From assembly GCA_001873215.1 (NCBI GenBank), contig MNYS01000003.1:49455-113454 (forward strand): a stretch of 64,000 bases of DNA, given 5' to 3'. The translations under genes were made by a program, and so were the position numbers. The notes under the pieces were generated by a model. That model saw only the letters and a list, made by a program, of their open reading frames with translations. It had not been told where the DNA came from and did not search any database. The DNA is from Candidatus Levybacteria bacterium CG2_30_37_29 (lineage in GTDB: Bacteria > Patescibacteriota > Microgenomatia > Levybacterales > GWA1-39-11). This document shows positions 1,916-59,022 of the stretch, piece after piece (the stretch's first letter is position 1; each line of letters begins with the position of its first letter).

Positions 1916-3109
1916 CTACTCATACCTCAGCGCTTCTATTGGGTTTAGTTTTGAAGCTCTTAGCGCCGGCGCCATACCAAAGACTACCCCGATTAAAAGC
2001 GAAAATGAAAATGCAAGAAAAGCAGACCAGGGCGTAACTGATGAAACAAAAAATTTTGACACAAGCATAGACCCTCCGATTCCAAGAGCAATACCTATAA
2101 GTCCTCCCGAGAGTGAAAGAATTATAGCTTCGAGTAAAAACTGTTTTAGAATATCAATTCGACGAGCGCCTAAAGCTTTTCTAAGACCTATTTCGCGCGT
2201 TCTTTCGGTTACCGACACAAGCATAATGTTTGCAACGCCGATTCCTCCGACAAGAAGTGAAATTGCTGCAATTCCACCAAGCGCAAGAGAGAGAATATTT
2301 GTAATGTTATTAACAGTTTCAAGGCTTGATTCTGCTGTTTGCAAGGTAAAATCGTCTTCTGTCAGGCGTCTTAGAAGAACTTTTTTTGCCTGATCTTTAA
2401 CAAAAGGAACAAGACGGGCTTCGTTTGCCGAAATATAAATTGCGTTTACCTGATTTATTCCAAATTGCCTTCTTGCTGCAGCAATCGGAATAACCGCCGT
2501 ATTGTCCTGGTCAAATCCAAACACCGAGCCCCTTTTTTTCATTACTCCGATTACGGTATAGATATTGTTTCCTATAAAGAAATGTTTTCCAATGGGGTTT
2601 TGGTCACTAAAAAGATTGTTGACAACTGTTGCTCCGACAATAGCAACTTTTGCTCCGGATTGTTCTTGGCTTGATGAGAAAAAAATTCCTTTTTCAATTA
2701 CTGCGTTTTGCACAGTTTTTGTGTAATTTGATGTTGTTCCAAGAACAGACATTCCTTTATCCGTCTTATTTTTATATTTTGAAGTTGAGCTTTGTGAAAT
2801 TACAGGCGCGACACTTGCAGCACTTTTAAGCTTTATTTGAAGACTTGTTGCATCGGAGAATAATAATTTATTGACAACAACACCACCCGGTGTTCTTGCT
2901 CCCCCAACTCTTCCGGGAATAACAAAAATAAGGTTAGATCCAAAAGACGCGATTTGATCGGTGATGTACCGTTGGAGTCCCGACCCAAGGGACACAAGCA
3001 TAATAATTGCAAATACACCGATAATAATTCCAAGAGTTGTCAAAAAACTTCTTAGCTTATTTGAGATAAGAGCTTTAAAAGCAAGTTTTATTAATTCGCG
3101 CGATTCCAT
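1916..3109 (-). CDS. ABC transporter permease of the FtsX/MacB family
   Basis: N-terminal TM helix, a large extracytoplasmic domain, and three C-terminal TM helices with the FtsX-type pattern TEREIGLRKALGA. Adjacent to the ATPase gene. Confidence 0.8.
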   Translation of the reverse strand: MESRELIKLAFKALISNKLRSFLTTLGIIIGVFAIIMLVSLGSGLQRYITDQIASFGSNLIFVIPGRVGGARTPGGVVVNKLLFSDATSLQIKLKSAASVAPVISQSSTSKYKNKTDKGMSVLGTTSNYTKTVQNAVIEKGIFFSSSQEQSGAKVAIVGATVVNNLFSDQNPIGKHFFIGNNIYTVIGVMKKRGSVFGFDQDNTAVIPIAAARRQFGINQVNAIYISANEARLVPFVKDQAKKVLLRRLTEDDFTLQTAESSLETVNNITNILSLALGGIAAISLLVGGIGVANIMLVSVTERTREIGLRKALGARRIDILKQFLLEAIILSLSGGLIGIALGIGGSMLVSKFFVSSVTPWSAFLAFSFSLLIGVVFGMAPALRASKLNPIEALRYE

Positions 3110-3787
3110 TTATTTTACAATCCTTCCGTCAACAAGCCGTATTATTTTTTTTGCTTGTTGTGCAATATCTGCTTCATGAGTAATCAATACTATTGTTTTC
3201 CCTTTTTTGTTTAGATTTTTTAATACTTCCATTACATCGTGTCCTGATTTTACGTCTAAATTTCCCGTCGGTTCATCAGCAAGAATTAGTGCTGGATCAT
3301 TCATAAGAGCACGAGCAATTGCTACGCGTTGCTGCTGTCCTCCGGAAAGCTTGTTGGGTCTGCTGTGCATTTTTTCCTCCATTCCAATGCTTGTAAGAAT
3401 TTCTTTTGCGCGGATATCTCTTTCTTTTTGGGGAATGCCGGCGTATATTGCAGGCAATACGACATTTTCAATAGTTGTAGAGCGGGGTAAAAGATTGAAA
3501 GATTGGAAAACAAATCCGATTGTTTTATTTCTAAGACGGGATAAATCATCCTCGCTAAATTTTGTTATCGGGCTTCCATTGAGAATATATGTTCCGGAAG
3601 TTGGAGTATCCAAAAGCCCCAAAATATTCATAAGAGTTGATTTTCCGGATCCTGACCTTCCTGTAATTGCGATAAAATCGCCCTCGTTAATTGTTAGAGA
3701 AATTCCTGTTAAAACACTGGTTATAACATCTCCAGTTATGTAATCTTTTGTGATATTTTCAAGCTTTATTATCGTGCTTTTACCCAT
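3110..3787 (-). CDS. ABC transporter ATP-binding protein (MacB/LolD-like)
   Basis: Walker [13 protein letters not shown] signature [15 protein letters not shown], Walker [12 protein letters not shown]. Confidence 0.9.
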
Positions 3788-3804
3788 TTGATTATTTGCA
3801 AGGA

Positions 3805-4863
3805 TTATTTTTTAGCAGTAACAAGGGTAGGATTCGTAACTATTGTATCCCCTTGGCTTAATCCATCCAGTACTTCAGCGGAAGTATCGTTTTGAAGACC
3901 AAGTTTTAATGTTTTTTTCTCGTATTTATTTCCAACTTTTACATAAATTTTATCTGTTTCAATAAGGCTTGCAAGAGAAACGGAAATTACACCCGTTTTT
4001 TTCTCGGTTATAATTTGTGCATTTCCATTCATTCCGACTCTATATTGAGAAGAGTCGCTTGGCGAGATTTTTGCCTTCACGTCATATGCGCTTCCTCCAC
4101 TTGACGTTGTATGAGTCACAAAATCTATGCTGTCAACAACAAGATGTATGGTTTTGTCAGGATAACTACCCAAAACAATATCTACTTGTTGTCCTTCTTT
4201 TACTTTGCTGATGTCCGCTTCGTCAACTTCCATTTTGAAAGTAAGAGAAGTCGGATCAACTACCGTAAAAGTAGTTGTGGCGGTTATATTAACTCCTGCA
4301 GTTTTTACGTCTGCGCGAGTTACAATTCCGGCAATAGGAGATGATAAAACAGAATTTTGCCGTACAATATCTTGAAGCTCAACAGAATTAATTGCGGTAT
4401 CAAGATCGTATTGATTATTCTGTAAAAGCCGTTTCATTCGGTCGTTCAAAGCATCTTGTGGTTTGTTCGCCTGTTGATCTAGCGTGTATTGGTCAAAAGT
4501 GTTTCTTTGTTTGCTGTATGTAATAAGGGAAGCTTTTAAATTTTTTTCAACCGTTCTTTGATCAAGTGTGGCAATTGTCTGATATTGAGTAACCGTATCT
4601 CCTTTGTTGACGTTAAGATATGTAAGAAGTCCACCGGCAAGAAAATTCAAATCAACACTTTTTTCAGCAGCTATTGTTCCCGTAATGGAAATGGTTTGTA
4701 TAAAATCTTGTTTTTTTACAACTTCTGTCGGAATTGGTTTTGCGGGTTTTGGCCAAAAGAAAAAAAGAGCAATCGATACAATTAAAACCAGTGGAATAAT
4801 AATCCATTTGTGTTTTAAGACAAACGCCGGAGCTTCATTTTTAATATTATTTATTTTTCCCAT
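3805..4863 (-). CDS. HlyD/MacA-family periplasmic adaptor (membrane fusion protein)
   Basis: N-terminal TM anchor, coiled-coil middle and beta-barrel-like C-terminus. It completes the adaptor-ATPase-permease operon arrangement. Confidence 0.7.
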   Translation of the reverse strand: MGKINNIKNEAPAFVLKHKWIIIPLVLIVSIALFFFWPKPAKPIPTEVVKKQDFIQTISITGTIAAEKSVDLNFLAGGLLTYLNVNKGDTVTQYQTIATLDQRTVEKNLKASLITYSKQRNTFDQYTLDQQANKPQDALNDRMKRLLQNNQYDLDTAINSVELQDIVRQNSVLSSPIAGIVTRADVKTAGVNITATTTFTVVDPTSLTFKMEVDEADISKVKEGQQVDIVLGSYPDKTIHLVVDSIDFVTHTTSSGGSAYDVKAKISPSDSSQYRVGMNGNAQIITEKKTGVISVSLASLIETDKIYVKVGNKYEKKTLKLGLQNDTSAEVLDGLSQGDTIVTNPTLVTAKK

Positions 4864-5014
4864 AATTAAAAAAGCCGATAAAGGCTTGCTTCTTATGATA
4901 TAAGATAAAGCGCGTTAATTCAAGGATAATTTTTTTATCAAGCTGTTATTATAGGTTAATTTACATATTGTATTTACGTAAATTCAGTGGTATTATCGCG
5001 CTAAGCCCCCATTT

Positions 5015-8000
5015 TTGTGGGAATTGTTTTTATTTATATGTATGTATAAATTTAGACGGAAGGTTAGAAAATTTATAACTTTCGTAGCATTTCTTGCAAT
5101 ACTGGGTCAATCCTTCAGCCCCTACCTATATATATTGCCCAAATCGGCTTATGCTCAAGAAGCAACGGATTCAGCAAGCTTACCGCAGGAAGTGACCCCG
5201 ACCCCGATTGAATCGGAGCAAGCAGATACAGCGACACCAACTCCTCTGCCAGCTGGCGTATCAACAGAAACCGTAACTCCAGCTCCAGTTGTAATTACAA
5301 TAGTTTCTCCGGAACCAACACCACCTCAAGCTCCTTCGAAATGGACTTTTGAAAAAGTAGAACTCAATAAAGAATATATTGCTCCTCAAAATAGCGGGGT
5401 AAAATTAACATTTACAAAACTCCCAACTCCTGCAGGCAATATAAAAATTGAAGAAATAAAACTTACTAAAGATCAAATTCAACAAACAGGATCCTTGTCA
5501 GATAAAGCATACGATATAACGTCAGATATGGTAGATGGTTCTTTTACTTATAATCTTTCTCTTCCCATTCCTGATTCATCAAAAGGAAAAGCAATTGAGG
5601 TAAAATTTGCGGAAGAACTTTCAAAAATAGGAACAGCGGAAAAAGTTGACAACGCCCTAACGAAAACAGACACATCAGTCTCCGTAACAAGCCTCGACCA
5701 CTTTACGATTTTTGTAGTTATCGGCACTATCACCAACCCCGGAGAGGATACTTATGTTGGAGAGCCTTTTGATGAAACTTTGTCACAAGTAATTATCAAT
5801 GAATTTGTTTATAACCCATCAACCGGCAATGAATGGATTGAATTATTTAATAAAACCGGTGAAGATATTAATCTGGAAAATTGGCAATTAGTTGATGATA
5901 ACGATCTTTCAAGTGATTTGTCCCTGACTGGCACACTACCAGCTAATGGTATTTTAGTTTTCGAAAAATCCGGAGGTGACGGTTGGCTAAATAATACCGG
6001 TTTAGAATCCATTACTTTAAAAGACAACAATGCACAAACCAAAGACGTTGTTTCTTACAAAGACAACTTTTTCGTTAATGGTCAAAATATTGGTAATGTC
6101 GCAGAAGATCAAAGTGTTTGCCGAACTGAAGATGCGGGTGATACATGGGAGGTCTGTTCGAGTCCTACTAAAGGATGGTTTAATAATGCCGAGACTTTTG
6201 ACTGTGTAAATCCGCCTTCGGGAGCACCTACTTTAGCTTCCATTGCCAACTGTCTGGAAAATCAGGGGTTAAGCACGAATATTGGAATGATTGATAACCC
6301 TTCGGCCACACCGGAAACCGATGGCGCTTTATATTTTGAAAAGGACGAGGGGAAAATTGTTTTTGAAAAAATTTTGAATTTAAGCGACCAAGATACGGTA
6401 AATATCTTACAGAGTCTAGGCACAGCGATGGAGATGTCCTATGGGCATATTAAGTTTGATTCCACGACTGCCGCTGCCATGGCTGCCACGGGTGCCAAGA
6501 TTTATATGTACGAGCTTAACTATGAGACAACACCAGAAATTGTTATTAAAGATGATACAGGCGCTATAGTAGGAACTACTAATGATTCCTCGGCCGACGA
6601 CGATATAGATACAGATGGTATTAATTATGATCTGGACACAGGGGGGTTGTCTTTTACCGCTTTACATTTTACCCAGTTTGATGTGCCGGCGGCTCCAAGT
6701 GCTCCTGTTCGACATGAAGTGTCAAGTCCGACCAATGATACCACACCGACGTTATCGTGGGACGATGTCTCGGCAACGCCGGAAGTAACGTCTTATGATC
6801 TTGAAGTATATGATTCTGAAGGAAATAATATTTATGATGGTTTTATTACGACAATTTCCTCAAGTTTTACACCAGAAGATCCATTACCCGATGATGATTA
6901 TACTTGGTACGTAATGGCAAACAATTCCATTGGTACTTCAGACTGGTCGGACGAGGGAAGTTTTACAATAGAGACTATTGCACCAACCGTTCAGTCTATA
7001 CAAACTATGGACAGTGACGGAGACGGCCATCTCGATGGGATTCAACTTACCTTCGATGAAGAGATTAATGACGATATGCTGGATATGGGTAATCCGGACG
7101 GATGGGATGTTGCCGATCCTGCCGGTGAGGAAAGTATTGGCACCGGCGAGATAGAAAACGACAATGTTTTAGTTTTAAGTTTTGGTGAAGGACCGACACC
7201 GGATACGGCCAATGTACCTAGCGTAACTTACACTCCAAGCGGCGGTCCGACCAGTACCCACGATTTGGCCGGTAATGAACTGGGGTCATATAGCGGAGTT
7301 CCGGAGGATAAAGCCTTACCGGTTTTAATAACGGCCGTAACTAAAGACACCGATACCAGTGGTCAAATCGACGCCATTGAGTTGACTTTTTCTGAAGAGA
7401 TAGATGATGATTGGCTTATTCTTGACTCCGCGGACGGTTGGGACGTAAGTGGATACGACGGTGTATCGATTGGAACAGGAACCATAGGATCTGACAACAT
7501 TCTCCTTCTGACTTTCGACGAAAGCGGAAGCCTAGATACGGGCGTAACTCCACTCGTCTCTTATACAGAAGGCGGGGGAGATGGGAGTACTCACGATTCG
7601 GCTGGAAACGAACTTGCCGCTGTAGTTGACTTTACCTCAATTGACGGGGCGGCACCGCGTGTGCCCGAGGCTGATCCGGGTGGCAGTGACTATTCTGGTG
7701 ATCAGTCGGTATCGCTTTCCAGCAGCGACGAAAATGGCCCGGCACCAGACATTTATTATACTATCGACGGAAGCGAGCCCAACAACGAAGACGGCACTCT
7801 TTATACGGATCCGATTCTGATTGATAAAGACACCACTCTTAAAGCTATCGCCTATGATAGCGCTGGCAACGCTAGTGGTGTATTAACGGAAGAGTATGGT
7901 ATTGCTCCGGTTATTTCCGGAGAAACAACCAGTTCCGTCACGACAACAGGAATAACCATTACTTGGACGACTGATGACCCCTCTACTTCAAGAGTGATTT

Positions 8001-8599
8001 ATGGCACTGCACCGATTTCTGATGCTACTGTTGCCACTTTTCCAGATGGATCAAATTATGGCTATGTTAATTCTACCGTTGAAGACTCAACTTTGGTTAC
8101 CGCTCACTCGGTTGGTTTGACGGGTTTGACCGCTGGAAGCACTTATTATTACCGAACTATATCCCACGGTTCGCCTGAAGCGGTTTCTTCAGAGAAAACA
8201 TTTTCTACGACATCAGCATCTACTACTAGTAGTGGTGGAGGAAGTTTAGGCTCCGGTGGAGGAGCAGGTGATGGTAGATCTGACGGTAAATCGGACGGAA
8301 GATCTGATGGACGTTCCGACGGCCTAGGTCAATCCTCTGCAGTTTTGGCTTCATCAACGTCAACTGGTGGAGGAACAACAGGAGAAGTGTTAGGAGCAGG
8401 TACAGAAGAACCAACATCAGGGACAACAATTTATCCAACTCCGACTCCGGAAAAAGAAATATTGGGTGCCGTTCAGTCCAAAGGTAAAGAAACCAAGACC
8501 GGTAATTTTATTTCTGAAAAATGGTGGTTAATTCCTATTTTTCTGGTATCAATAATAATTAGCATAGTTTTATTTAAAAGGCGCAAGAAGAGCGAATAA
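5015..8599 (+). CDS. Large cell-surface protein with a signal peptide, a lamin-tail domain, tandem internal repeat domains, a chitobiase/hexosaminidase-C-like domain, Fn3-like domains, a Gly/Ser/Asp-rich linker and a C-terminal TM anchor
   Basis: Signal-like N-terminus; the ATG at 5042 (MYKFRRKVRKFITFVAFLAILG) is a plausible true start. LTD motif IINEFVYNPSTGNEWIELFN...NWQLVD. Two homologous repeats (DSDGDGHLDGIQLTFDEEINDD... and DTSGQIDAIELTFSEEIDDD...). DIYYTIDGSEPN...TLKAIAYDSAGNAS. GRSDGKSDGRSDGRSDG repeats. C-terminal WWLIPIFLVSIIISIVLFKRRKK. Confidence 0.7.
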   Translation: MWELFLFICMYKFRRKVRKFITFVAFLAILGQSFSPYLYILPKSAYAQEATDSASLPQEVTPTPIESEQADTATPTPLPAGVSTETVTPAPVVITIVSPEPTPPQAPSKWTFEKVELNKEYIAPQNSGVKLTFTKLPTPAGNIKIEEIKLTKDQIQQTGSLSDKAYDITSDMVDGSFTYNLSLPIPDSSKGKAIEVKFAEELSKIGTAEKVDNALTKTDTSVSVTSLDHFTIFVVIGTITNPGEDTYVGEPFDETLSQVIINEFVYNPSTGNEWIELFNKTGEDINLENWQLVDDNDLSSDLSLTGTLPANGILVFEKSGGDGWLNNTGLESITLKDNNAQTKDVVSYKDNFFVNGQNIGNVAEDQSVCRTEDAGDTWEVCSSPTKGWFNNAETFDCVNPPSGAPTLASIANCLENQGLSTNIGMIDNPSATPETDGALYFEKDEGKIVFEKILNLSDQDTVNILQSLGTAMEMSYGHIKFDSTTAAAMAATGAKIYMYELNYETTPEIVIKDDTGAIVGTTNDSSADDDIDTDGINYDLDTGGLSFTALHFTQFDVPAAPSAPVRHEVSSPTNDTTPTLSWDDVSATPEVTSYDLEVYDSEGNNIYDGFITTISSSFTPEDPLPDDDYTWYVMANNSIGTSDWSDEGSFTIETIAPTVQSIQTMDSDGDGHLDGIQLTFDEEINDDMLDMGNPDGWDVADPAGEESIGTGEIENDNVLVLSFGEGPTPDTANVPSVTYTPSGGPTSTHDLAGNELGSYSGVPEDKALPVLITAVTKDTDTSGQIDAIELTFSEEIDDDWLILDSADGWDVSGYDGVSIGTGTIGSDNILLLTFDESGSLDTGVTPLVSYTEGGGDGSTHDSAGNELAAVVDFTSIDGAAPRVPEADPGGSDYSGDQSVSLSSSDENGPAPDIYYTIDGSEPNNEDGTLYTDPILIDKDTTLKAIAYDSAGNASGVLTEEYGIAPVISGETTSSVTTTGITITWTTDDPSTSRVIYGTAPISDATVATFPDGSNYGYVNSTVEDSTLVTAHSVGLTGLTAGSTYYYRTISHGSPEAVSSEKTFSTTSASTTSSGGGSLGSGGGAGDGRSDGKSDGRSDGRSDGLGQSSAVLASSTSTGGGTTGEVLGAGTEEPTSGTTIYPTPTPEKEILGAVQSKGKETKTGNFISEKWWLIPIFLVSIIISIVLFKRRKKSE

Positions 8600-20596: not shown

Positions 20597-22282
20597 ATGG
20601 AAAATAGTTTGTCTTTTATTTCGCTTGGCGGTGTCGGGGATGTAACAAAAAATTTATATCTCTATGAAATCGGTGGAGAAATTCTTGTTGTGGATTGCGG
20701 AATAGGGTTTGCCGAGGAAACAATGCCGGGAGTGGATCTTATGATTCCGGACATTTCGTATTTGAAAAATATACTCCGTCTGGGTCCACAAAATTCACAA
20801 CAGACCGGAAAAGCAAAAAAAATTGTCGGTATGTTTTTGACGCATGGACACGAAGATCACATTGGCGCTCTCCCTTTTATTTTACCCAATCTTCCAAATT
20901 TTCCAATATATGCTTCAAATCTAACTGCAGCCTTGGCAAACGAAAAATTAAAAGACTTCGGTCTTCCCCATAGAGTTACAACCGCGTCATTTGACCAGAC
21001 TATAACACTTGGCGCATTCCGCGTTTCGCTTGCGCGCGTGACGCATTCTATTATTGATGCGGCAAATTTATTTATACGTACACCAGTTGGAAATTTTTAC
21101 CATGCAAGCGATTTTAAATTTGATTTTACGCCGGTTGACGGTAAGCCTTCAGAAATTCGAAAAATTGCAAAATTTGGAGAAGAAGGTGTTTTGTGTCTTA
21201 TGTCTGACTCTCTGGGCGCTGAAAGACCAGGGCATTCCAAATCAGAGCTTTCAATAACAGAAAGTTTTGATGATGAATTTCGGAAAGCAAAAGGAAAAGT
21301 ATTCGTTTCTACATACTCGTCAAATATTTCCAGAATGAATCAGGCAATAGAAGTTGCCCTCAAATATAATCGTAAAGTTTGTTTTATCGGTAGGTCATTT
21401 TTGAAGGCGAGGGATGTTGGAAAACAATTAGGGTACATGAGTCTTCCGACAAAAATGGATATAAAACCTCAAGACGCAAAACGTCTTCCGCCAAACCAAG
21501 TTATGATTCTTGTTGCGGGGAGTCAAGCCCAGGTAGAATCGGCGTTGGTACGAATCGCAAGCGACAACGACAAAGATTTGCGTATAACACGCGGAGATAC
21601 GATTATTTTTTCAGCAGACCCAATTCCGGGCAATGAAGTCAATATTAATTCACTTATTGATACTCTTTCAAAAAAAGAGGCAAGAGTTGTGTATTCGGAT
21701 ATTTCTGATCACTTTCATGTTTCAGGACACGGTTCTCAAAACGATTTAAAGCTTATGATTTCCCTGACAAATCCCAAATTTGTTTTGCCGATTGGCGGAA
21801 CATACAGGCAAATGGTTGCGTACAGGGAGATTGCCCGCGACATGGGATATAGAGACGATAAAATTATTCTTTTGGACCAGAAAAAAGAAATTATTTTTTC
21901 AGAAGGAGGATTTCGCTTTGGAAAAATTATAGATGCATCAAAAATATACGTTGATCAGATAACGGGTGAGAAAATTGAAAGTTTTGTGGTTATGGACCGC
22001 AAAAAAATTGCCGAAGAAGGGATTGTTGTTGTAATTGTTGAGGTGAATTCTCAAGGGCAGCTTGTAAGCCGACCGGATATTATTACAAAAGGAATTATTT
22101 ACCAGAAAAAAGAGCAGTTAGCAGTATCAATTGAGCAGGAACTTAAGAAAATGTTTGGAAGAAGCACTGATAATAATGTAAATCTTGCATATGTAAGAAA
22201 AACAATACAGCAGACAACGGAGGGAATTTTTTACCGGGAAAAACGCGAACCCCTCGTCATCCCCGTAGTTTTGGAAATCTAA
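20597..22282 (+). CDS. rnj: Ribonuclease J (metallo-beta-lactamase, beta-CASP, C-terminal domain)
   Basis: FISLGGVGDVTKNLYLYEI, HGHEDHIGALPF, beta-CASP region, HVSGHGSQNDL. Confidence 0.9.
   Translation: MENSLSFISLGGVGDVTKNLYLYEIGGEILVVDCGIGFAEETMPGVDLMIPDISYLKNILRLGPQNSQQTGKAKKIVGMFLTHGHEDHIGALPFILPNLPNFPIYASNLTAALANEKLKDFGLPHRVTTASFDQTITLGAFRVSLARVTHSIIDAANLFIRTPVGNFYHASDFKFDFTPVDGKPSEIRKIAKFGEEGVLCLMSDSLGAERPGHSKSELSITESFDDEFRKAKGKVFVSTYSSNISRMNQAIEVALKYNRKVCFIGRSFLKARDVGKQLGYMSLPTKMDIKPQDAKRLPPNQVMILVAGSQAQVESALVRIASDNDKDLRITRGDTIIFSADPIPGNEVNINSLIDTLSKKEARVVYSDISDHFHVSGHGSQNDLKLMISLTNPKFVLPIGGTYRQMVAYREIARDMGYRDDKIILLDQKKEIIFSEGGFRFGKIIDASKIYVDQITGEKIESFVVMDRKKIAEEGIVVVIVEVNSQGQLVSRPDIITKGIIYQKKEQLAVSIEQELKKMFGRSTDNNVNLAYVRKTIQQTTEGIFYREKREPLVIPVVLEI
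22222..22269 (+). repeat. Direct repeat DR-L (48 bp perfect, about 60 bp imperfect), the native 3' end of rnj
   Basis: GGGAATTTTTTACCGGGAAAAACGCGAACCCCTCGTCATCCCCGTAGT is identical at 23134-23181. Confidence 0.85.
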
Positions 22283-22304
22283 CTATAGTGTTCCACTTAT
22301 CCTC

Positions 22305-22333
22305 TTGACAAGAGGAGTCAGAAAGTTTATAAT
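22305..22333 (+). promoter_or_regulatory. Consensus sigma70 promoter (TTGACA, 17 nt, TATAAT) for the toxin-antitoxin cassette
   Basis: TTGACA at 22305-22310, 17-nt spacer, TATAAT at 22328-22333, about 70 nt upstream of the antitoxin start. Confidence 0.55.
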
Positions 22334-22401
22334 TCAATAAGTTAGAAATATAACATTTTCCCTAAGTAAAATGTTTTCTGAACGAATAAACTATTAAACT
22401 T

Positions 22402-22677
22402 ATGAGTCAAAATACTACACCTATCAATCAGGAAGAATGGTTAAAAATCCTCGGGAAGGGTATGGTTACGCTTCCTAAAAAATGGAGAGATGAGTTAGGA
22501 ATTGCGAATGGAGATATTGTTAAGGCAAAAAAAGAAGGAAATAAAGTAGTTATTGAAGCACAAAGAAATAGAGAAGTGCCTTATAGAATTTATACTGATG
22601 CTGAAATCAAAGTGTTTCTTGCAGAAGATAAGATACCAAAAAGTCTCGTCAAAAAACTAAGAAAGAAATTTTCTTAA
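22402..22677 (+). CDS. AbrB/SpoVT/MazE-type antitoxin
   Basis: GKGMVTLPKKWRDELGIANGDIVKAKKEGNKVVIE fits the SpoVT-AbrB swapped-hairpin domain. Immediately upstream of a PIN-domain gene. Confidence 0.55.
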   Translation: MSQNTTPINQEEWLKILGKGMVTLPKKWRDELGIANGDIVKAKKEGNKVVIEAQRNREVPYRIYTDAEIKVFLAEDKIPKSLVKKLRKKFS

Positions 22678-22684
22678 AATCCCC

Positions 22685-23113
22685 ATGAGAGTTTATTTTG
22701 ATGCTTCGGTTATCATTGCAGGATTTTTATCATCCATTGGTGGATCTGCTCAGTTGTTTTGGTTACTACAGAAAAAAGTGCTAAAAGGTATCACGTCTCA
22801 AACGGTAATTGATGAGGTTTTAGAAGAAGATAAGCCAACCAAACTAAAAAGAACTAAAGAAGAGATAGAAAACTTTATAGTACGAAGCGAGATACTCGTA
22901 AGAGAGGCTATTCCCTTAGAAGAGATTAGAAAGTATGAAGAATTAGTTGATCCAGAAGACTCTCATCTTATTGCAGGAGCAAATCTTACTCATTGTGAAT
23001 ATTTAGTAACGCTAGACAAAAAGCATCTTCTTAGAGATGATATACAAAAGAAATTTTTACCACTCAAAATAGTCTCTCCAAAAGAATTACTTTCGAAAAT
23101 CGTGCGTAATTAA
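22685..23113 (+). CDS. PIN-domain (VapC-like) toxin
   Basis: N-terminal VYFDASVIIA with the conserved Asp. DSHLIAGANLTHCEYLVTLDKKHL with later acidic residues. About 140 aa, located after the antitoxin. Confidence 0.65.
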   Translation: MRVYFDASVIIAGFLSSIGGSAQLFWLLQKKVLKGITSQTVIDEVLEEDKPTKLKRTKEEIENFIVRSEILVREAIPLEEIRKYEELVDPEDSHLIAGANLTHCEYLVTLDKKHLLRDDIQKKFLPLKIVSPKELLSKIVRN

Positions 23114-23133
23114 GGTGGCACCTCAATTAGTCA

Positions 23134-23181
23134 GGGAATTTTTTACCGGGAAAAACGCGAACCCCTCGTCATCCCCGTAGT
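23134..23181 (+). repeat. Direct repeat DR-R, a duplicated copy of the rnj 3' end following the PIN gene
   Basis: Identical 48-mer. In frame after the PIN stop codon it still encodes GIFYREKREPLVIPVVLGI-stop, a remnant of the rnj C-terminus. Confidence 0.85.
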
Positions 23182-23316
23182 CCTAGGAATCTAAACCCTT
23201 TCACTGGTAAAAAGGGGAGCGTTAATCCTTTTAAAATAAGCCCCAAAAGGTATAGGTAATAAATTTAAGTTCAATCCTTCGCTTTAAAGATATATCTAAA
23301 CTTTAAGAATTAATGT

Positions 23317-23559
23317 TTGATTTTGGATTGCTTCTTTTGGCGGAAGAGCCTCGAGGCTATATGTTATAATATATCTATGACTATAAATAAAGCATTTAAG
23401 CAACATGAAAATGAATGGGTCTTGACAGACAGAAAATATTCAAAAGTAATTCTCTCAAATAAAGACCTTGGAAAACTTCAGAAAGAGGTTAAGAAAAAGA
23501 AAGTTAAAGATGCAGTCGTTATGTTTATTCCTCCTTTTGACGCATTTATTACCTCTTAG
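23317..23559 (+). CDS. Small hypothetical protein, upstream partner of a retropepsin-like gene (module copy 1)
   Basis: Core WVLTDRKYSKVILSNKDLGKLQKEVKKKKV...FIPPFD is homologous to 45418-45612 (WVGISTDHKKVLVHGETLKEAKLKAEEKKL...FFPAGE). The internal Met at 23377 is a possible true start. Confidence 0.4.
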   Translation: MILDCFFWRKSLEAICYNISMTINKAFKQHENEWVLTDRKYSKVILSNKDLGKLQKEVKKKKVKDAVVMFIPPFDAFITS

Positions 23560-23564
23560 TTTTT

Positions 23565-23984
23565 ATGGCGAAATTTGACTTCGAACCAGACTTGCATTTA
23601 AATCCTGAAACAAATAACTGGGAATATGCTTATCGTCCTTACTTATTCGTAAAGCTTGGATACAGACACCGTCTTAGTGAGAATTCGATAAGAGCACTTA
23701 TAGATTCCGGTTCTGATCATAATATTTTTCCTGCAGAACTTGCTTCTGAAATTGGCCTTGATTATAAAAAAGGGGTTAAACGCAAAACGACTGCAGTAAA
23801 TGAATACGCATTTATTGTATATGGGAACAGGGTAAAAATGGAGTATGAGGGGAAAGTTGTCGAAACGGTTATTTACTTTGGAGAAAATGTCAAAATTCCT
23901 GTTCTTGGAAGAAATGGATTTTTTAATTACTTTAAAAAGGTTAATTTTGACGTAAAAAATAAGAACTTCGAATTGATAGAATAA
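23565..23984 (+). CDS. Retropepsin-like (clan AA) aspartic peptidase, module copy 1
   Basis: ALIDSGSDHNIFPAELASEIGLDY matches the retropepsin active-site motif hhDS/TGA followed by ...LGl. C-terminal PVLGRNGFFNYFKKVNFD is typical of the Asp_protease_2 type. Confidence 0.55.
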   Translation: MAKFDFEPDLHLNPETNNWEYAYRPYLFVKLGYRHRLSENSIRALIDSGSDHNIFPAELASEIGLDYKKGVKRKTTAVNEYAFIVYGNRVKMEYEGKVVETVIYFGENVKIPVLGRNGFFNYFKKVNFDVKNKNFELIE

Positions 23985-24112
23985 TTTTCTTGTCTCTTTA
24001 TAAGAATTCACTTACCTAGATAATATCCTATAATATTTGACACGGTGGGGATTTTGTGGTACATTTATTATGTTTGATATTAATAGGCCAAACTTAGTAT
24101 ACTGTTTAATAT

Positions 24113-26221
24113 ATGGCAAGAAAGAGACGATATCACAAAAGACGCGGTTTTAAACTCAAGTTAAAAAACGATACGATTTATACGATTTTTGCGATAGGTC
24201 TTATTGTTGGCGGAATTGCTCTTCTTGCCTCCTACACTCAAAGCGGGCCCCTTTTAACGCGCGCTAATACTTATCTGACAGGATATTTTGGTCCTGTTGC
24301 ATTTGTTGTGCCGGTAAATTTAATTCTTCTAGGCCTTCTTCTTACAAGACTTAGACTTGCTATAACCAAAATGAATGTTGTTATGGGATTTTTGGTTTTT
24401 AGCGTTTCACTTTTGGGTGCTTTAAGAAGCGGCGTTATCGGAGCAAAACTTTTTTCATCAGCAGATGGTCTTATGGGTACAGTGGTCTCGTTAATAATGT
24501 ATATTGCCGGAGTATTGGTAGGTATTATTGTACTTATGAATATTTCGGTTGGAACACTTTTTAAAAGCAGTAAGACTGTGACAAAAGGAATAGGAGTATT
24601 TTTCAAAAAAATAATTGTGCCTCTTTTTAAAACAAAGAAAAAATTTGCCGTATCTGAGATGAAGCAAATTACAATAAAAGGATTTGATGATAAATCAAAA
24701 GAGCAGGTTGTCCCACAAAAGCCGGTTGAGAAAAAAGACGGCATGCCGGATAAAATCGTTTTGAATAAACCGCTTGAGATAGGTGTTTGGGAATATCCTC
24801 CTCTTTCGCTTCTTTCGCTTCATGCGCAAAAAAGTGATAATAAGGGGGATGTAAAAAAAACTGCGGACTTAATTGAGAAAACTTTGCAAAGTTTTGGAAT
24901 TCAAGCCAGAGTTTCTGAAATTAATGTCGGCCCGTCAGTTACGCAATATGCAATTGAAATTGCACGCGGAACAAAGCTTTCAAAAATAACAGGTCTTTCA
25001 AACGATTTGGCTCTTGCAACAGAAGCGCCAACCGGCCAAATACGTATAGAAGCGCCAATTCCGGGAAGAAATTTAGTAGGTATAGAAATCCCCAACCGTT
25101 CACTCGATATTGTTTCTATGAAAACAATGCTTGAGTCCCCTCAAATGCAAAAAGCAAAATCAAAGCTTGTTGTTCCTCTGGGACTTGATGTTTCGGGAAA
25201 TGCAATAATAACGGATATTACAAAAATGCCCCATGTATTAATTGCCGGAACCACAGGGTCCGGAAAATCAGTTATAATAAATTCTTTCATCTCCTCAATT
25301 TTGTTCCGCGCGTCCCCAAGCGAGGTAAAAATGATTTTGATTGATCCAAAAAGGGTTGAATTAACAGGATATGCTGATATTCCTCATCTTATGACTCCTG
25401 TTGTTACAGAAACAGCACAAGCTGTTTCGGCGCTAAAATGGGCGATGAAAGAAATGGATAGAAGATATGTGAAATTTGCTGACAGCGGGGTTAGGAATAT
25501 CGACGCATTCAATGAGCTTTCAGGATTTCAAGCGCTTCCATACATAGTAATATTTATAGATGAGCTTGCAGATCTTATGTCTCTTGCTTCAGTTGAGGTA
25601 GAAGACTCGATTACAAGACTTGCGCAAATGGCCCGCGCTACAGGAATTCATCTTGTTCTTGCAACGCAACGTCCGTCTGTTGATGTTTTGACAGGGCTTA
25701 TAAAAGCAAATATTCCGGCCCGTATTTCATTTAACGTTTCATCAATGATTGACTCAAAAGTTATTATTGATATGCCTGGAGCAGAAAAGCTTTTAGGACG
25801 CGGAGATATGCTGTATATTCCGCCGGAGCAAGCAAAGCCTACTAGAATACAAGGTACATTTATTTCAGATCAGGATGTAAAAAGGCTTGTAAATTTCATA
25901 AAGTCCCGTGGAATTCCTGTGAATTATACAACTGAAGTTTTAGAGCAAAAAGTCAACATTAAGCGGGGCGGTGGTATTTCATCTGATGAAGGAGACGGCG
26001 GCCGTGACGAGTTATTTGATGAAGCGATTAGGCTTGTCTGTCAGTATGATAGAGCCTCCTCGTCTTTTTTACAAAGAAGATTTAAAGTTGGATTTAATAG
26101 GGCGGCACGGATTTTGGAACAACTGGAAGATGCGGGAGTTGTTGGGCCCGGAGACGGATCCAAACCTCGCGAAGTACTCATAAAATCTCCAGAGAGTATA
26201 TTGGGCAATGATAATTCATAG
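24113..26221 (+). CDS. ftsK: DNA translocase FtsK/SpoIIIE
   Basis: N-terminal TM helices, Walker A GTTGSGKS, LVLATQRPSVDV, gamma winged-helix FLQRRFKVGFNRAARILEQLE. Confidence 0.9.
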   Translation: MARKRRYHKRRGFKLKLKNDTIYTIFAIGLIVGGIALLASYTQSGPLLTRANTYLTGYFGPVAFVVPVNLILLGLLLTRLRLAITKMNVVMGFLVFSVSLLGALRSGVIGAKLFSSADGLMGTVVSLIMYIAGVLVGIIVLMNISVGTLFKSSKTVTKGIGVFFKKIIVPLFKTKKKFAVSEMKQITIKGFDDKSKEQVVPQKPVEKKDGMPDKIVLNKPLEIGVWEYPPLSLLSLHAQKSDNKGDVKKTADLIEKTLQSFGIQARVSEINVGPSVTQYAIEIARGTKLSKITGLSNDLALATEAPTGQIRIEAPIPGRNLVGIEIPNRSLDIVSMKTMLESPQMQKAKSKLVVPLGLDVSGNAIITDITKMPHVLIAGTTGSGKSVIINSFISSILFRASPSEVKMILIDPKRVELTGYADIPHLMTPVVTETAQAVSALKWAMKEMDRRYVKFADSGVRNIDAFNELSGFQALPYIVIFIDELADLMSLASVEVEDSITRLAQMARATGIHLVLATQRPSVDVLTGLIKANIPARISFNVSSMIDSKVIIDMPGAEKLLGRGDMLYIPPEQAKPTRIQGTFISDQDVKRLVNFIKSRGIPVNYTTEVLEQKVNIKRGGGISSDEGDGGRDELFDEAIRLVCQYDRASSSFLQRRFKVGFNRAARILEQLEDAGVVGPGDGSKPREVLIKSPESILGNDNS

Positions 26222-55910: not shown

Positions 55911-57086
55911 ATGGCTAGGGTTGCTCTGTCCGAATATGCTGCCAAGATGGCGCTCCACACTTTTTTAGGCCTTACTTATCACGGCCTATCTTTTAATGCC
56001 GATACCGATGTTGTCGAAAAAATTAATGAGTTTGTTCGTCCCGACAGAAAATATGTTGTAAAAGTTGATGAAGGGGTAAAACGCAGGATGAAACAAGGCT
56101 TAGTCACCCTTGATACCGATCTTAATGGAGTTATTCTTGCAATAGAAAATTACAGAAAGCGCGGCTATTCATATTTTTTAGTCGAAGAATATGTTCCTCA
56201 TGATTCATCTCTTGAGAAGTATTTATCCCTTGAGAGAACAACTCTTGGAACCGTTGTTTCGTATTCGCATAAAGGAGGAATAGATATTGAAAAACATAAA
56301 GAAGAAGTAGAAACGCTTCTTTTAAAAGATTTACAAGCCGCACGAAGCGTTGCAGAAGGATTGGGAATGGATGAAGAAGTTTTTTTGAAATTAAAAGAGG
56401 CATTTGACGATCTTTATTTTTCATTTCTTGAAATAAATCCGCTTGTTGTTAAGTTTGACAGCTTTCAGATTTTGGATATTGCAGGAGAAGTAGATAGCGC
56501 GGCAGAATTTTTTGTCCAAGACTGGTCTTCTTCTGACTTTCGTAATGCTCGTGCTTCAAAGCTAACTGATGAGGAAAAAAATATTTTGCGGCTTTCGGCA
56601 AAAAGTCCGGCAGCATTTAAATTAAATGTTCTAAATCCTGACGGAAGCATTTTTATGCTTCTTTCAGGCGGCGGCGCAAGTATTGTTTTGGCTGATGAAG
56701 TAAAAAATATTGGCCATGGAGGAGAGCTTGCAAATTACGGGGAGTATTCCGGAAACCCGAATGAGGAAGAAACCTACATTTATACAAAAAATTTACTAAG
56801 TTTGCTTCTTAAATCTGAATCAGACAAAAAAGTATTGATTATTGCCGGAGGAGTTGCAAATTTTACTGATGTCAGAATAACTTTTAAAGGAATTATTAAT
56901 GCAATTTCAGAGGTGAGCGAGAAATTAAAAGATCAAGGTATTGAAATTTATGTACGGCGCGGGGGTCCTCACCAAAAAGAGGGATTGAAGCTTATAAGCG
57001 ATTTTGTTTCCGAAAACGGGCTTATCGGAAAAGTTCACGGACCGGAAATGATATTAACAGACATAATTCATGAAGCTATAAAATAA
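55911..57086 (+). CDS. aclB: ATP-citrate lyase small subunit (AclB, ATP-grasp, SucC-like)
   Basis: DLYFSFLEINPLVV, KLNVLNPDGSIFMLLSGGGASIVLADEV..GGELANYGEYSGNPNEEETYIYTKNLLSL, VLIIAGGVANFTDVRITFKGII and IYVRRGGPHQKEGL match the ACLY N-terminal half block by block. 391 aa, close to the size of a bacterial AclB. Confidence 0.8.
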   Translation: MARVALSEYAAKMALHTFLGLTYHGLSFNADTDVVEKINEFVRPDRKYVVKVDEGVKRRMKQGLVTLDTDLNGVILAIENYRKRGYSYFLVEEYVPHDSSLEKYLSLERTTLGTVVSYSHKGGIDIEKHKEEVETLLLKDLQAARSVAEGLGMDEEVFLKLKEAFDDLYFSFLEINPLVVKFDSFQILDIAGEVDSAAEFFVQDWSSSDFRNARASKLTDEEKNILRLSAKSPAAFKLNVLNPDGSIFMLLSGGGASIVLADEVKNIGHGGELANYGEYSGNPNEEETYIYTKNLLSLLLKSESDKKVLIIAGGVANFTDVRITFKGIINAISEVSEKLKDQGIEIYVRRGGPHQKEGLKLISDFVSENGLIGKVHGPEMILTDIIHEAIK

Positions 57087-57189
57087 TTTTAAATTACAAA
57101 TTTTAAATTAAAAATGAAATCTAAATGTTTTAAAATTTATAAATTGATAATTGATTGAAAATTAAAAATTCCCGCCTGCAACGTTTAAT

Positions 57190-59022
57190 GTGAAGTATTT
57201 GCGGGCAGGTAAAATTGAAAATTCTGAAACTATGTTAGATATTGAAAAATTGCGAAAACAAAACCATTCAATTCTTTTCATCGGAAGTTATCCGGCTATT
57301 ATTCAAAGTGCTTTGGATTATGAATTTCATTTAGGGCGCGACAAGCCTTCAATTAAAGCAATATTTGCTTCAGGCCGTAAATTTGAGAGATATTTCTTTG
57401 GGAAAAAAGAGATACTTCTTCCTGTGTATTCTTCTTGGGAGAGGATACCTGAAAAAATAAGAAACGGTATAACACTTTTTGTAAATGTTGCTTCCGCAAG
57501 AAGAGTTCTTACGTTAACGGTTGAGGCAATAGATTCTCTGCCAAGTCTTTCGGGAGGAGTTATTTTTGCAGAAAATGTTCCGGAAAAACATGCACTGGAC
57601 TTAAGGGCAATAACAGATTCCAAAAATATTTTTCTAATAGGTCCGGCAAGCGTAGGACTTCTTATTCCTGAAACTCTTAAGCTTGGGGCAATTGGAGGGG
57701 TAGAGTCACAGCAATTAATAGATGCACATATTTTTGATGCTGGAAGTGTTGCCGTTCTTTCGGCTTCCGGAGGTATGACAAACGAGATTATAAATATTGT
57801 AACAGGGATGAATAAAAAAATATCTTTTTCCATGTCTTTTGGAGGAGATAGATTTCCTCTATTGCGCCCATCAGAGGCTTTTTTGGCTGCACAAAATGAT
57901 CCAAAAACCAAAACAATTATTTATTTTGGAGAGCTTGGAGGGGTTGATGAATATGAGGTGGCAAGTCTTATTTCAGAAAAAAAAGTTACAAAAACCGTTA
58001 TTGCCTATATAGCAGGAGTTGTTGCAGAGATTTTTCCTCAAGCTCCTCAGTTTGGACACGCAAAAGCCATGGCAGCAAACCAAAAAGAAACAGCACGCGC
58101 AAAACGTGATGTTTTAGCGGGCGTGGGGGTAAAAATTGCAGAATCATTCTCGCAATTTGTTGATTTAATTGAATCGCTTCCATCTGTTCCAGATGACAAA
58201 AAAAGTAATATAATAGAAGATATGAGTGATAGAAAACATGCACTTATTGCATCAAGTATTTCAAAAGATACCGACGGTACGGTATCGATTTTGGGAGAGG
58301 ACCTTCTTTCTTTTTCAAAAAAGAATTCATTTGCTTACATTGTTTCTTCCCTGTTTTTGGGAAAAAAGATTAAATCTCCTGAATTTGAGGAATTTGTAGA
58401 TTTTGTCTTGCGTCTTCTTGTAGACCATGGTCCTTATGTAAGTGGCGCGGTTAATACGATTATTGCGTCCCGTGCAGGGAGGGATCTTGTGTCAAGTTTG
58501 TCCGCGGGTCTTCTTACGATTGGTCCAAGATTTGGCGGGGCAATAAATGAAGCCGCAGGGAATTGGCTTGAAGGTGTTATGAATAATAAAAACCCCGGCG
58601 AATTTGTTGAAGAATTTGCCGCGAAGAAAAAATATATTCCTGGAATTGGACATAGAAAATACAGAAGTGATTATCCTGACCCAAGGGTATCTGAAATTAT
58701 ATCTTTTTCAGGCGGACTCAAGGGAAAATTTACATCGTTTGCCAGAGAGGTTGAGAAAATAACAGTTGGTAAAAAAGGCAACCTTATTTTAAATGTAGAC
58801 GGTGCAATAGCCGCAGTTGCTCTTGACATTTTGTCAGAAAAGGAGCAATACTCAAATGAAGAGCTTTTGCATCTTTCAGAGATAGAATTTTTTAATGCGC
58901 TTTTTGTTTTAAGTAGATCTGTTGGATTTATAGCGCATTTTCTTGATCAGAAAAGGCTTGACGAAGGAATTTTCAGACTTGAAGAAGACCAGGTTGCTCA
59001 AGCAGAAATACATAAAGAATAA
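57190..59022 (+). CDS. aclA: ATP-citrate lyase large subunit (AclA: CoA-binding/ligase domain plus citrate-synthase-like citryl-CoA lyase domain)
   Basis: Phospho-His loop PQAPQFGHAKAMAANQKETARAKRDVLAGVGVKIAESF against ACLY [38 protein letters not shown]. Citrate-synthase-like GHRKYRSDYPDPR and KKGNLILNVDGAIAAVALDIL. 610 aa. The alternative ATG at 57232 is a possible start. Confidence 0.8.
   Translation: MKYLRAGKIENSETMLDIEKLRKQNHSILFIGSYPAIIQSALDYEFHLGRDKPSIKAIFASGRKFERYFFGKKEILLPVYSSWERIPEKIRNGITLFVNVASARRVLTLTVEAIDSLPSLSGGVIFAENVPEKHALDLRAITDSKNIFLIGPASVGLLIPETLKLGAIGGVESQQLIDAHIFDAGSVAVLSASGGMTNEIINIVTGMNKKISFSMSFGGDRFPLLRPSEAFLAAQNDPKTKTIIYFGELGGVDEYEVASLISEKKVTKTVIAYIAGVVAEIFPQAPQFGHAKAMAANQKETARAKRDVLAGVGVKIAESFSQFVDLIESLPSVPDDKKSNIIEDMSDRKHALIASSISKDTDGTVSILGEDLLSFSKKNSFAYIVSSLFLGKKIKSPEFEEFVDFVLRLLVDHGPYVSGAVNTIIASRAGRDLVSSLSAGLLTIGPRFGGAINEAAGNWLEGVMNNKNPGEFVEEFAAKKKYIPGIGHRKYRSDYPDPRVSEIISFSGGLKGKFTSFAREVEKITVGKKGNLILNVDGAIAAVALDILSEKEQYSNEELLHLSEIEFFNALFVLSRSVGFIAHFLDQKRLDEGIFRLEEDQVAQAEIHKE

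Follow-up and report, generated by a model that had tools for sequence, protein, structure and literature searches.

Toxin-antitoxin modules are among the most horizontally mobile genes of bacteria, without having mobility functions of their own, and their movement is rarely visible. Several described systems invite comparison with the locus treated here. The concept of minimal mobile elements comes from Neisseria (Saunders and Snyder in 2002 and Snyder and colleagues in 2007, both cited via PMC3787668). In Escherichia coli, single crossover of recircularised DNA is the main outcome of insertion and duplicates 109-950 bp of homology (PMC3240628). A further group is formed by cis-mobilizable elements (CIMEs), which keep the attachment sites attL and attR after integrase loss (PMC5704250). 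Here we describe a VapBC-like toxin-antitoxin cassette located behind the RNase J gene rnj in Candidatus Levybacteria bacterium CG2_30_37_29, an uncultured member of the candidate phyla radiation (CPR, Microgenomates) from a groundwater series. The window, that is, the whole analysed stretch of contig MNYS01000003.1, is 64,000 nt long. The cassette lies between the working rnj terminus (R1) and a second copy of this terminus (R2), filled and empty alleles of the site coexist in one population, and the architecture of the insertion is a new form of known recombination-driven cassette exchange. The locus is composed of the following features:

20597-22282, plus strand: rnj, conserved flank on the left side of the hotspot and its homology anchor
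22221-22282, plus strand: R1, the working rnj 3' terminus and left copy of the repeat, with the tail TTTTGGAAATC
22283-22304, plus strand: left spacer of the cassette, CTATAGTGTTCCACTTATCCTC, cassette-specific
22305-22333, plus strand: promoter TTGACA-17-TATAAT, of the sigma-70-type consensus (12 of 12 positions), which drives the toxin-antitoxin operon
22402-22677, plus strand: antitoxin of 91 aa with an AbrB/MazE swapped-hairpin domain
22685-23113, plus strand: VapC-like PIN_3 toxin of 142 aa (PF13470, TIGR00305)
23114-23132, plus strand: right spacer of the cassette, GGTGGCACCTCAATTAGTC, cassette-specific, which stops at the abrupt joint with R2
23133-23194, plus strand: R2, the displaced second rnj terminus, which follows the PIN stop codon
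23188-23275, plus strand: 3' remnant of an 86-aa gene (secreted protein) fused to R2; the gene is intact in the sister lineage L112
23276-23334, plus strand: junction element CCTTCGCTTTAAAG...TTGATTTTGGATTGCTTC, the right-hand point where filled and empty alleles reconverge

The rnj gene is intact and encodes a complete RNase J of 561 aa, in which Pfam recognizes the RNase_J_b_CASP domain (1.8e-39) and the whole of RNase_J_C (1-102 of 102). R1 constitutes the final 62 nt of this gene, TAA included, and R2 is identical to it at 58 of 62 positions; the perfect part of the repeat spans 49 nt (22221-22269 and 23133-23181), and none of the four mismatches lies outside the last 13 nt (P = 0.0013 for uniformly scattered mismatches). 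R1 ends with GTT TTG GAA ATC TAA (VLEI, stop) and R2 with GTC CTA GGA ATC TAA (VLGI, stop). The original prediction, made from the letters of the window, had reported a 48-mer from the rnj end repeated immediately after the PIN gene. This repeat is real, since the 48-mer occurs exactly twice in the window versus never in 100 shuffles; however, its second copy starts 19 nt past the PIN stop codon. The right boundary of the repeat coincides exactly with the rnj stop codon and the left boundary is abrupt and lies within coding sequence, similarity to rnj setting in abruptly at 23133. The R1 tail is shared with L112 and is ancestral, because this outgroup combines an A-type repeat core with an R1-like tail. 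The core of R2 is that of the local rnj allele, and its tail is nearest to the D tail of certain empty alleles (two differences). The best reading of R2 is a displaced former gene end that is non-functional. R2 also shares the reading frame of the PIN gene (23111-23194). Translation past the PIN stop codon would extend the toxin by 26 residues, with the C-terminal peptide of RNase J at their end; this shared frame is probably a coincidence.

The original prediction placed a consensus promoter, an AbrB-type antitoxin and a VapC-like PIN toxin between the repeats, and domain searches bear this out. The antitoxin matches PF04014 (7.1e-10, above the cut-off) and TIGR01439 (9.6e-8, 31.6 bits versus a cut-off of 28.3), and the toxin matches PF13470 (2.8e-9, 38.3 bits, cut-off 27) and TIGR00305 (8.4e-9, 35.7 bits, cut-off 29.15). 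The acidic tetrad of the PIN domain (D6, E44, D92 and D111) is intact and invariant across 20 homologues. The antitoxin gene precedes the toxin gene in the same orientation, with 7 nt between them, and the -35 box of their promoter lies within the palindrome CCTCTTGACAAGAGG. Gene order, protein sizes, domains, tetrad and promoter are those of VapBC-like type II modules that pair an AbrB/MazE-fold antitoxin with a PIN_3 toxin; judged by its sequence, the module is a type II toxin-antitoxin pair, ordinary in itself. No transcription terminator was found between rnj and the cassette, and an Rfam search of window positions 22000-24300 returned nothing relevant. Microgenomates encode 594 homologues of the PIN protein, many of them 60-77% identical. 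Between cassettes, nucleotide homology is limited to the section that starts with the -35 box and closes with the PIN stop codon, the promoter region being 86% conserved in the nearest related cassette (L101), and no flanking direct repeats were detected around the related cassettes of 60-77% identity in five loci (L101-L105) representing three contexts.

Variants of this population were obtained by exact-protein look-ups, since the population itself seems to be absent from the metagenome contig collection, in which a degenerate exact pattern covering all repeat tails had no matches. Scans for RNase J in genome and metagenome contigs gave relatives of at most 68% identity, and the sister lineage L112 was found among the members of the RNase J protein cluster. 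At least 18 contigs show the filled structure; they come from assemblies of JGI, NCBI and ENA, three NCBI genome bins being among the sources, and MEGAHIT contigs built at k=141 cross the entire 62-nt repeat together with both flanks. Owing to this recurrence in contigs from several pipelines, the filled structure is not an assembly artefact, and the repeat is genuine.

Three contigs of the same population (L006, L009 and L010) contain a single rnj terminus and no cassette, which confirms an insertion polymorphism. Alleles with and without the cassette coexist, both flanks being more than 99.9% identical. Single-copy sites, which the original prediction had proposed to look for, do exist; however, they are not the simple attachment site attB, as they contain a cupin remnant and the filled allele exceeds them by 966 bp rather than 912 bp. 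In the empty alleles, TAA is followed by CCCCCATCAGTAATTTTCAAGTTCTGT and then by CCTTCGC..., and in the filled allele a stretch of 81 nt separates R2 from the same CCTTCGC.... Both stretches are explained by L112 (92% nucleotide identity), because it holds a cupin gene and the 86-aa gene behind rnj, in the order rnj-cupin-233 aa-86 aa-DUF4258. The short spacer of the empty alleles is the leftover of the cupin gene end. The stretch behind R2 is the remnant of the 86-aa gene (87% nucleotide identity to L112 positions 6161-6279; translation NLNPFTGKKGSVNPFKISPKRYR followed by two stops), fused to R2 at the microhomology GGAAT(C/G)TAA.

The contigs resolve into a small set of haplotypes. On the left side of the cassette, rnj is joined to it through core A and the R1 tail in 18 contigs, and through core B and the R1 tail in four contigs (allele B; L012-L014 and L108). 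On the right side, the cassette is followed by core A, the R2 tail and the 86-aa remnant in 25 contigs. The empty sites combine rnj and core A with either the R1 tail (L006) or the D tail TTCTAGAAATC (L009 and L010), in both cases followed by the cupin remnant, and in L195 the cassette is followed by core A, the R1 tail and the cassette again. Allele B has three additional single-nucleotide polymorphisms (SNPs) in R1 and one just upstream at 22215, so that its R1 and R2 match at only 55 of 62 positions. The perfection claimed for the repeat accordingly applies to the 49 nt of the window allele; the perfect 48-mer is a property of one allele and no sign of recent duplication. An RNase J with the R2-type VLGI tail is missing from the 11 members of the protein cluster, and the simple product of excision by R1 x R2 recombination was therefore never assembled.

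The junction element at the right-hand end occurs three times in L112, once incompletely (5100-5177, 5908-5925 and 6240-6317), and once per allele in the window population. Wherever the strand continues into a gene, the element lies immediately upstream of the promoter of that gene. Contig L111 begins exactly at this element, and L009 and L010 stop just inside it; these contig ends are what an assembly-graph branch between coexisting alleles would produce. The element may provide right-hand homology for cassette exchange or deletion. This repeated element, about 60-90 nt long (..GGTCGGACTTTCGCTTTAAAAACATATCC..TTGATTTTGGATTGCTTC), marks the boundaries of hotspot cassettes and is present in a single copy in the 64-kb window.

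Homologous recombination in the flank is recorded by clustered, mosaic SNP tracts in rnj that are partly L112-like. In L013, 35 of the 44 SNPs over 20 kb fall into rnj, in tracts 20845-21229 and 22012-22253; many of these variants match L112 and others do not. The divergent tracts form a nested set, each of them stopping at the cassette boundary. L013 and L108 have the tract 22012-22253, L012 and L014 the tract 22215-22253, and in L012 the latter accounts for the sole four differences in 20 kb. The window has no divergent rnj tract, and the cassette is almost free of SNPs. This pattern is as expected if the cassette had arrived linked to a foreign rnj 3' segment and the linkage had later been eroded by local rnj alleles; likewise, a core of local type in R2 would be expected if R2 were the old terminus of the recipient. 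Altogether, imported tracts make rnj a mosaic among strains that share more than 99.9% identity elsewhere, and one tract of 385 nt is about 6% different.

The gene order AAA/Lon-rnj-ftsK-HTH25 is conserved in Microgenomates, and the gap between rnj and ftsK measures 8-190 nt in 15 of the 22 relatives' loci that contain both genes. The window and other relatives carry additional genes in this interval. L026 has DUF433 and DUF5615 (PIN-like) genes directly behind rnj (7731-8292), with further genes as well. L122 contains a 162-aa open reading frame (ORF), a DUF433 gene about 570 nt past rnj (4941-5246) and a 350-aa gene. The gene after rnj is a 222-aa ORF in L118, a 127-aa ORF in L030 and L128, and an acyltransferase-like gene in L023. 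The DUF4258 gene of L112 (6339-6563) is located about 1.6 kb past rnj, on a contig that stops before any ftsK. In L023, which represents another Levybacteria species, 20 nt of the rnj terminus are moreover present twice without a mismatch (7633-7652 and 7722-7741; blast E = 8e-7), and a 69-nt GC-rich filler lies between the two copies. A GC-rich sequence related to this filler occurs behind the rnj stop codon in L114 (3544-3592), and Rfam gave no match around the L023 filler. These varied inserts support the hotspot idea of the original prediction: the rnj-ftsK interval is a hotspot of variable content, in which toxin-antitoxin parts recur among relatives. To the right of the junction element, the window contains two further features of this interval and its boundary:

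23377-23984, plus strand: second two-gene cassette, encoding a 60-aa DUF5678-like protein and a 139-aa clan AA (retropepsin-like) aspartic protease-like protein
24113-26221, plus strand: ftsK (PF01580, 1.1e-60), the right conserved flank of the hotspot

The second cassette has its own promoter and is found in filled and empty alleles alike, including L006. Its Pfam and NCBIfam matches are weak and all lie under the curated cut-offs; it may be another toxin-antitoxin-like or defence pair.

A search for dedicated mobility machinery was negative. In agreement with the original prediction, precomputed Pfam annotation contains no integrase, resolvase or transposase domains within 10 kb on either side of the cassette, and the same domains are missing from 20 further ORFs of the window, four ORFs at 1916-8599 and the rest of the genome being outside the search. 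Terminal inverted repeats linking the cassette ends were not found. A transposon, insertion sequence or miniature inverted-repeat transposable element was rejected on the grounds of this lack of inverted repeats, a duplication as long as 62 nt and the absence of a detected transposase domain. The adjoining ftsK gene prompted the idea of an integrative mobile element exploiting Xer (IMEX) at a dif site. The GC skew is positive over all 64 kb and never switches, which argues against a terminus or dif context despite ftsK, and inspection by eye revealed no dif-like arm-spacer-arm structure in the repeat; with no skew switch and no dif-like signal, this idea was rejected. Viral contigs had no match to the repeat core, to the relatives of the PIN protein or to a 77-nt foreign sequence from contig L196 described below.

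A single contig contains a junction of a different kind. L195 (ENA ERZ27293358, k=141, 829 nt) starts with window positions 22655-23132, ending in AATTAGTC, continues with a single repeat having an R1-type tail and then with CTATAGTG... to 22571, so that the PIN end is joined through one repeat to the cassette promoter. Its only SNP (22704 C>T) changes A7 to V beside the catalytic D6. Such a junction is expected for a 912-bp circle or a tandem duplication arising from R1 x R2 recombination; an assembler chimera would have the same appearance, and the contig alone does not tell these alternatives apart. L195 runs unbroken through both assembly-graph branch points, an indication that, in this sample, the junction form was more abundant than the chromosomal junctions.

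Part of the population shows a breakpoint within the antitoxin gene, at 22572. Contig L196 proceeds from rnj through R1 and the promoter to 22572 and then enters 77 nt of foreign DNA (AGCCAAAAACCCTTTTGTTTCATACC..., L196 positions 810-886), a junction that predicts an antitoxin shortened to 71 aa (P0135). Neither the window nor any of the retrieved loci contains this 77-mer, and viral contigs lack it too. Several contigs of other samples begin or stop at 22571-22582 and at 22655, namely at the starts of L019, L110 and L020 and at both ends of L195.

We favour, with moderate confidence, a homology-driven insertion through the conserved rnj end, either by single crossover or by homology-facilitated illegitimate recombination, in a hotspot resembling a minimal mobile element. 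Under this explanation, small cassettes would be gained, lost and swapped in the rnj-ftsK interval with no mobility gene involved. The DNA that brought in the AbrB/PIN cassette probably bore an rnj 3' end already, because in the proposed donor the cassette sat directly behind rnj. The left joint would have been made by homologous recombination within the conserved rnj terminus. The right joint at 23132/23133, located 62 nt upstream of the recipient's own stop codon, is best read as illegitimate. The route could have been a Campbell-type single crossover of a recircularised fragment or homology-facilitated illegitimate recombination. In either case the incoming terminus would have become the working rnj end (R1), and the recipient's former terminus, already fused to the remnant of the 86-aa gene, would have been displaced to become R2. 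The claim of the original prediction that the insertion regenerates an intact rnj terminus holds, the old terminus being left as R2. A repeat with its right end at the stop codon and an abrupt left end is expected for an orthologous rnj end of another lineage joined illegitimately, the stop codon being where orthologous similarity between lineages would end. Later spread of the filled haplotype between strains would proceed by homologous recombination, using rnj on the left and the repeated junction element on the right, and R1 x R2 recombination could yield the 912-bp circle or a tandem copy.

The comparison with described systems delimits this explanation. The structure of the locus would fit Campbell-type insertion and homology-facilitated illegitimate recombination (PMC3240628), in which a homologous joint is paired with an illegitimate one and a single crossover duplicates exactly the homologous segment brought in. 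In contrast to that E. coli system, the homology in the window comprises no more than 62 nt, the event took place in nature and became fixed in a population, the duplicated sequence is the 3' end of a conserved housekeeping gene, which is so regenerated, and the cargo is an addiction module. With the Neisseria minimal mobile elements, as they are outlined in PMC3787668, the locus shares variable content between two conserved flanking genes in close relatives (here the window, the empty alleles, L112, L023, L026, L118 and L122), the lack of mobility genes, homologous exchange in the flanks and tracts in a flanking gene. Unlike the elements described in that outline, the window haplotype has a 62-nt duplication of a flank-gene terminus, gene-fragment scars and a repeated junction element; in addition, a circle or tandem junction is seen here, and the host is a CPR bacterium not known to be competent.

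Several points weigh against homology-driven insertion. A length of 62 nt is short for efficient RecA-type recombination. The donor arrangement, rnj followed by the cassette without R2, was not found, and we therefore infer the primary event, including the order of its steps, the type of recombination and its dependence on RecA. The abrupt joint at 23132/23133 and a similarity that reaches as far as the stop codon fit such an event in structure; any microhomology at the right joint would become visible only against a donor sequence. The unbroken L195 contig fits an abundant circular form better than occasional recombination, and the two independent duplications that end at an rnj stop codon, in the window and in L023, could point to a targeted mechanism. 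Finally, classical homology-facilitated illegitimate recombination usually gives a deletion and not a duplication (PMC3240628).

Among the rival explanations, a second repeat copy created by collapsed or duplicated reads has next to no probability. Such artefacts probably exist: rnj of L132 contains a 118-nt tandem duplication (6487-6659) with a 55-nt perfect start and a frameshift, which we considered as a third case and dropped, since 55 nt is a common assembler k-mer size and the structure is probably a product of strain merging at k=55. The filled structure, however, is repeated across pipelines, samples, spanning k=141 contigs and three NCBI bins, and the artefact is effectively refuted. 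The site-specific integration put forward by the original prediction is a more substantial rival, which we nevertheless consider unlikely. It would make the cassette a non-autonomous CIME or miniature integrative element, moved by a recombinase acting in trans at an attP that mimics the rnj 3' end, with R1 and R2 as attL and attR. The arrangement of cargo between direct repeats, the regenerated gene end, the attP-like junction in L195 and the rnj-terminus duplication ending at the stop codon in a second lineage, L023, are all consistent with this mechanism. There is also a precedent in the CIMEs and integrative elements at gene 3' ends, in which direct repeats likewise surround a cargo and attL and attR persist with no integrase inside (PMC5704250). 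Unlike those elements, the window element is only 912 bp long, has no cognate integrase among the domains found, lacks a simple attB at its empty site and has no att core in common with its relatives.

The details of the alleles argue further against a site-specific reaction. No recombinase is encoded by the tested ORFs of the 64-kb window. The empty alleles differ from the filled one by 966 bp and carry a different remnant, that of the cupin gene, R2 is fused to a gene fragment, and the VLGI-tailed RNase J that precise excision would leave is missing from the 11-member cluster. In allele B, R1 and R2 differ on either side of every possible crossover point. The related cassettes L101-L105 have no flanking repeats, the repeats of the window and L023 are unlike in length (62 versus 20 nt) and in sequence, and the SNP tracts in rnj reveal homologous recombination that is pervasive at precisely this place. 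Less likely again, in our judgement, is a local origin, with a tandem duplication of the rnj terminus through unequal exchange or replication slippage as the first step and an illegitimate insertion of the cassette between the copies as a later one. The 20-nt duplication of L023 with its mere 69-nt filler could be an intermediate of this process, but two independent rare events would be needed at one spot and the sequences behind R1 and R2 are unrelated. Moreover, a local duplication leaves unexplained why the similarity stops exactly at the stop codon, why the mismatches cluster in the last 13 nt and why divergent rnj tracts are linked to the cassette.

Homology-driven insertion might also be taken one step further, which we do only tentatively and regard as rather unlikely: the 912-bp unit, consisting of one rnj-terminus copy, the promoter, the antitoxin and the PIN gene, could be a self-perpetuating, integrase-free mobile element. 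Host recombination between R1 and R2 would free the circle, and the captured 62-nt gene end would serve as a homology "address label" for re-insertion by single crossover behind rnj in related genomes, with rnj regenerated at each re-insertion. The toxin-antitoxin pair would kill cells that lose the unit; if true, this would explain why the junction form is seen and the precise-excision allele never.

Outside the hotspot, the window contains two adjoining genes at 55911-59022 with ATP-citrate lyase-like domains (Citrate_bind/ATP-grasp and CoA-ligase/citrate synthase). Such genes may be unusual in a CPR genome.

A single natural population thus keeps the filled site, empty sites, rnj tracts, the scar of a displaced gene end and possibly a circular or tandem intermediate. 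These alleles make integrase-free movement of a cassette directly testable with existing read data, and they show how the end of a housekeeping gene can survive an insertion intact in a small CPR genome.

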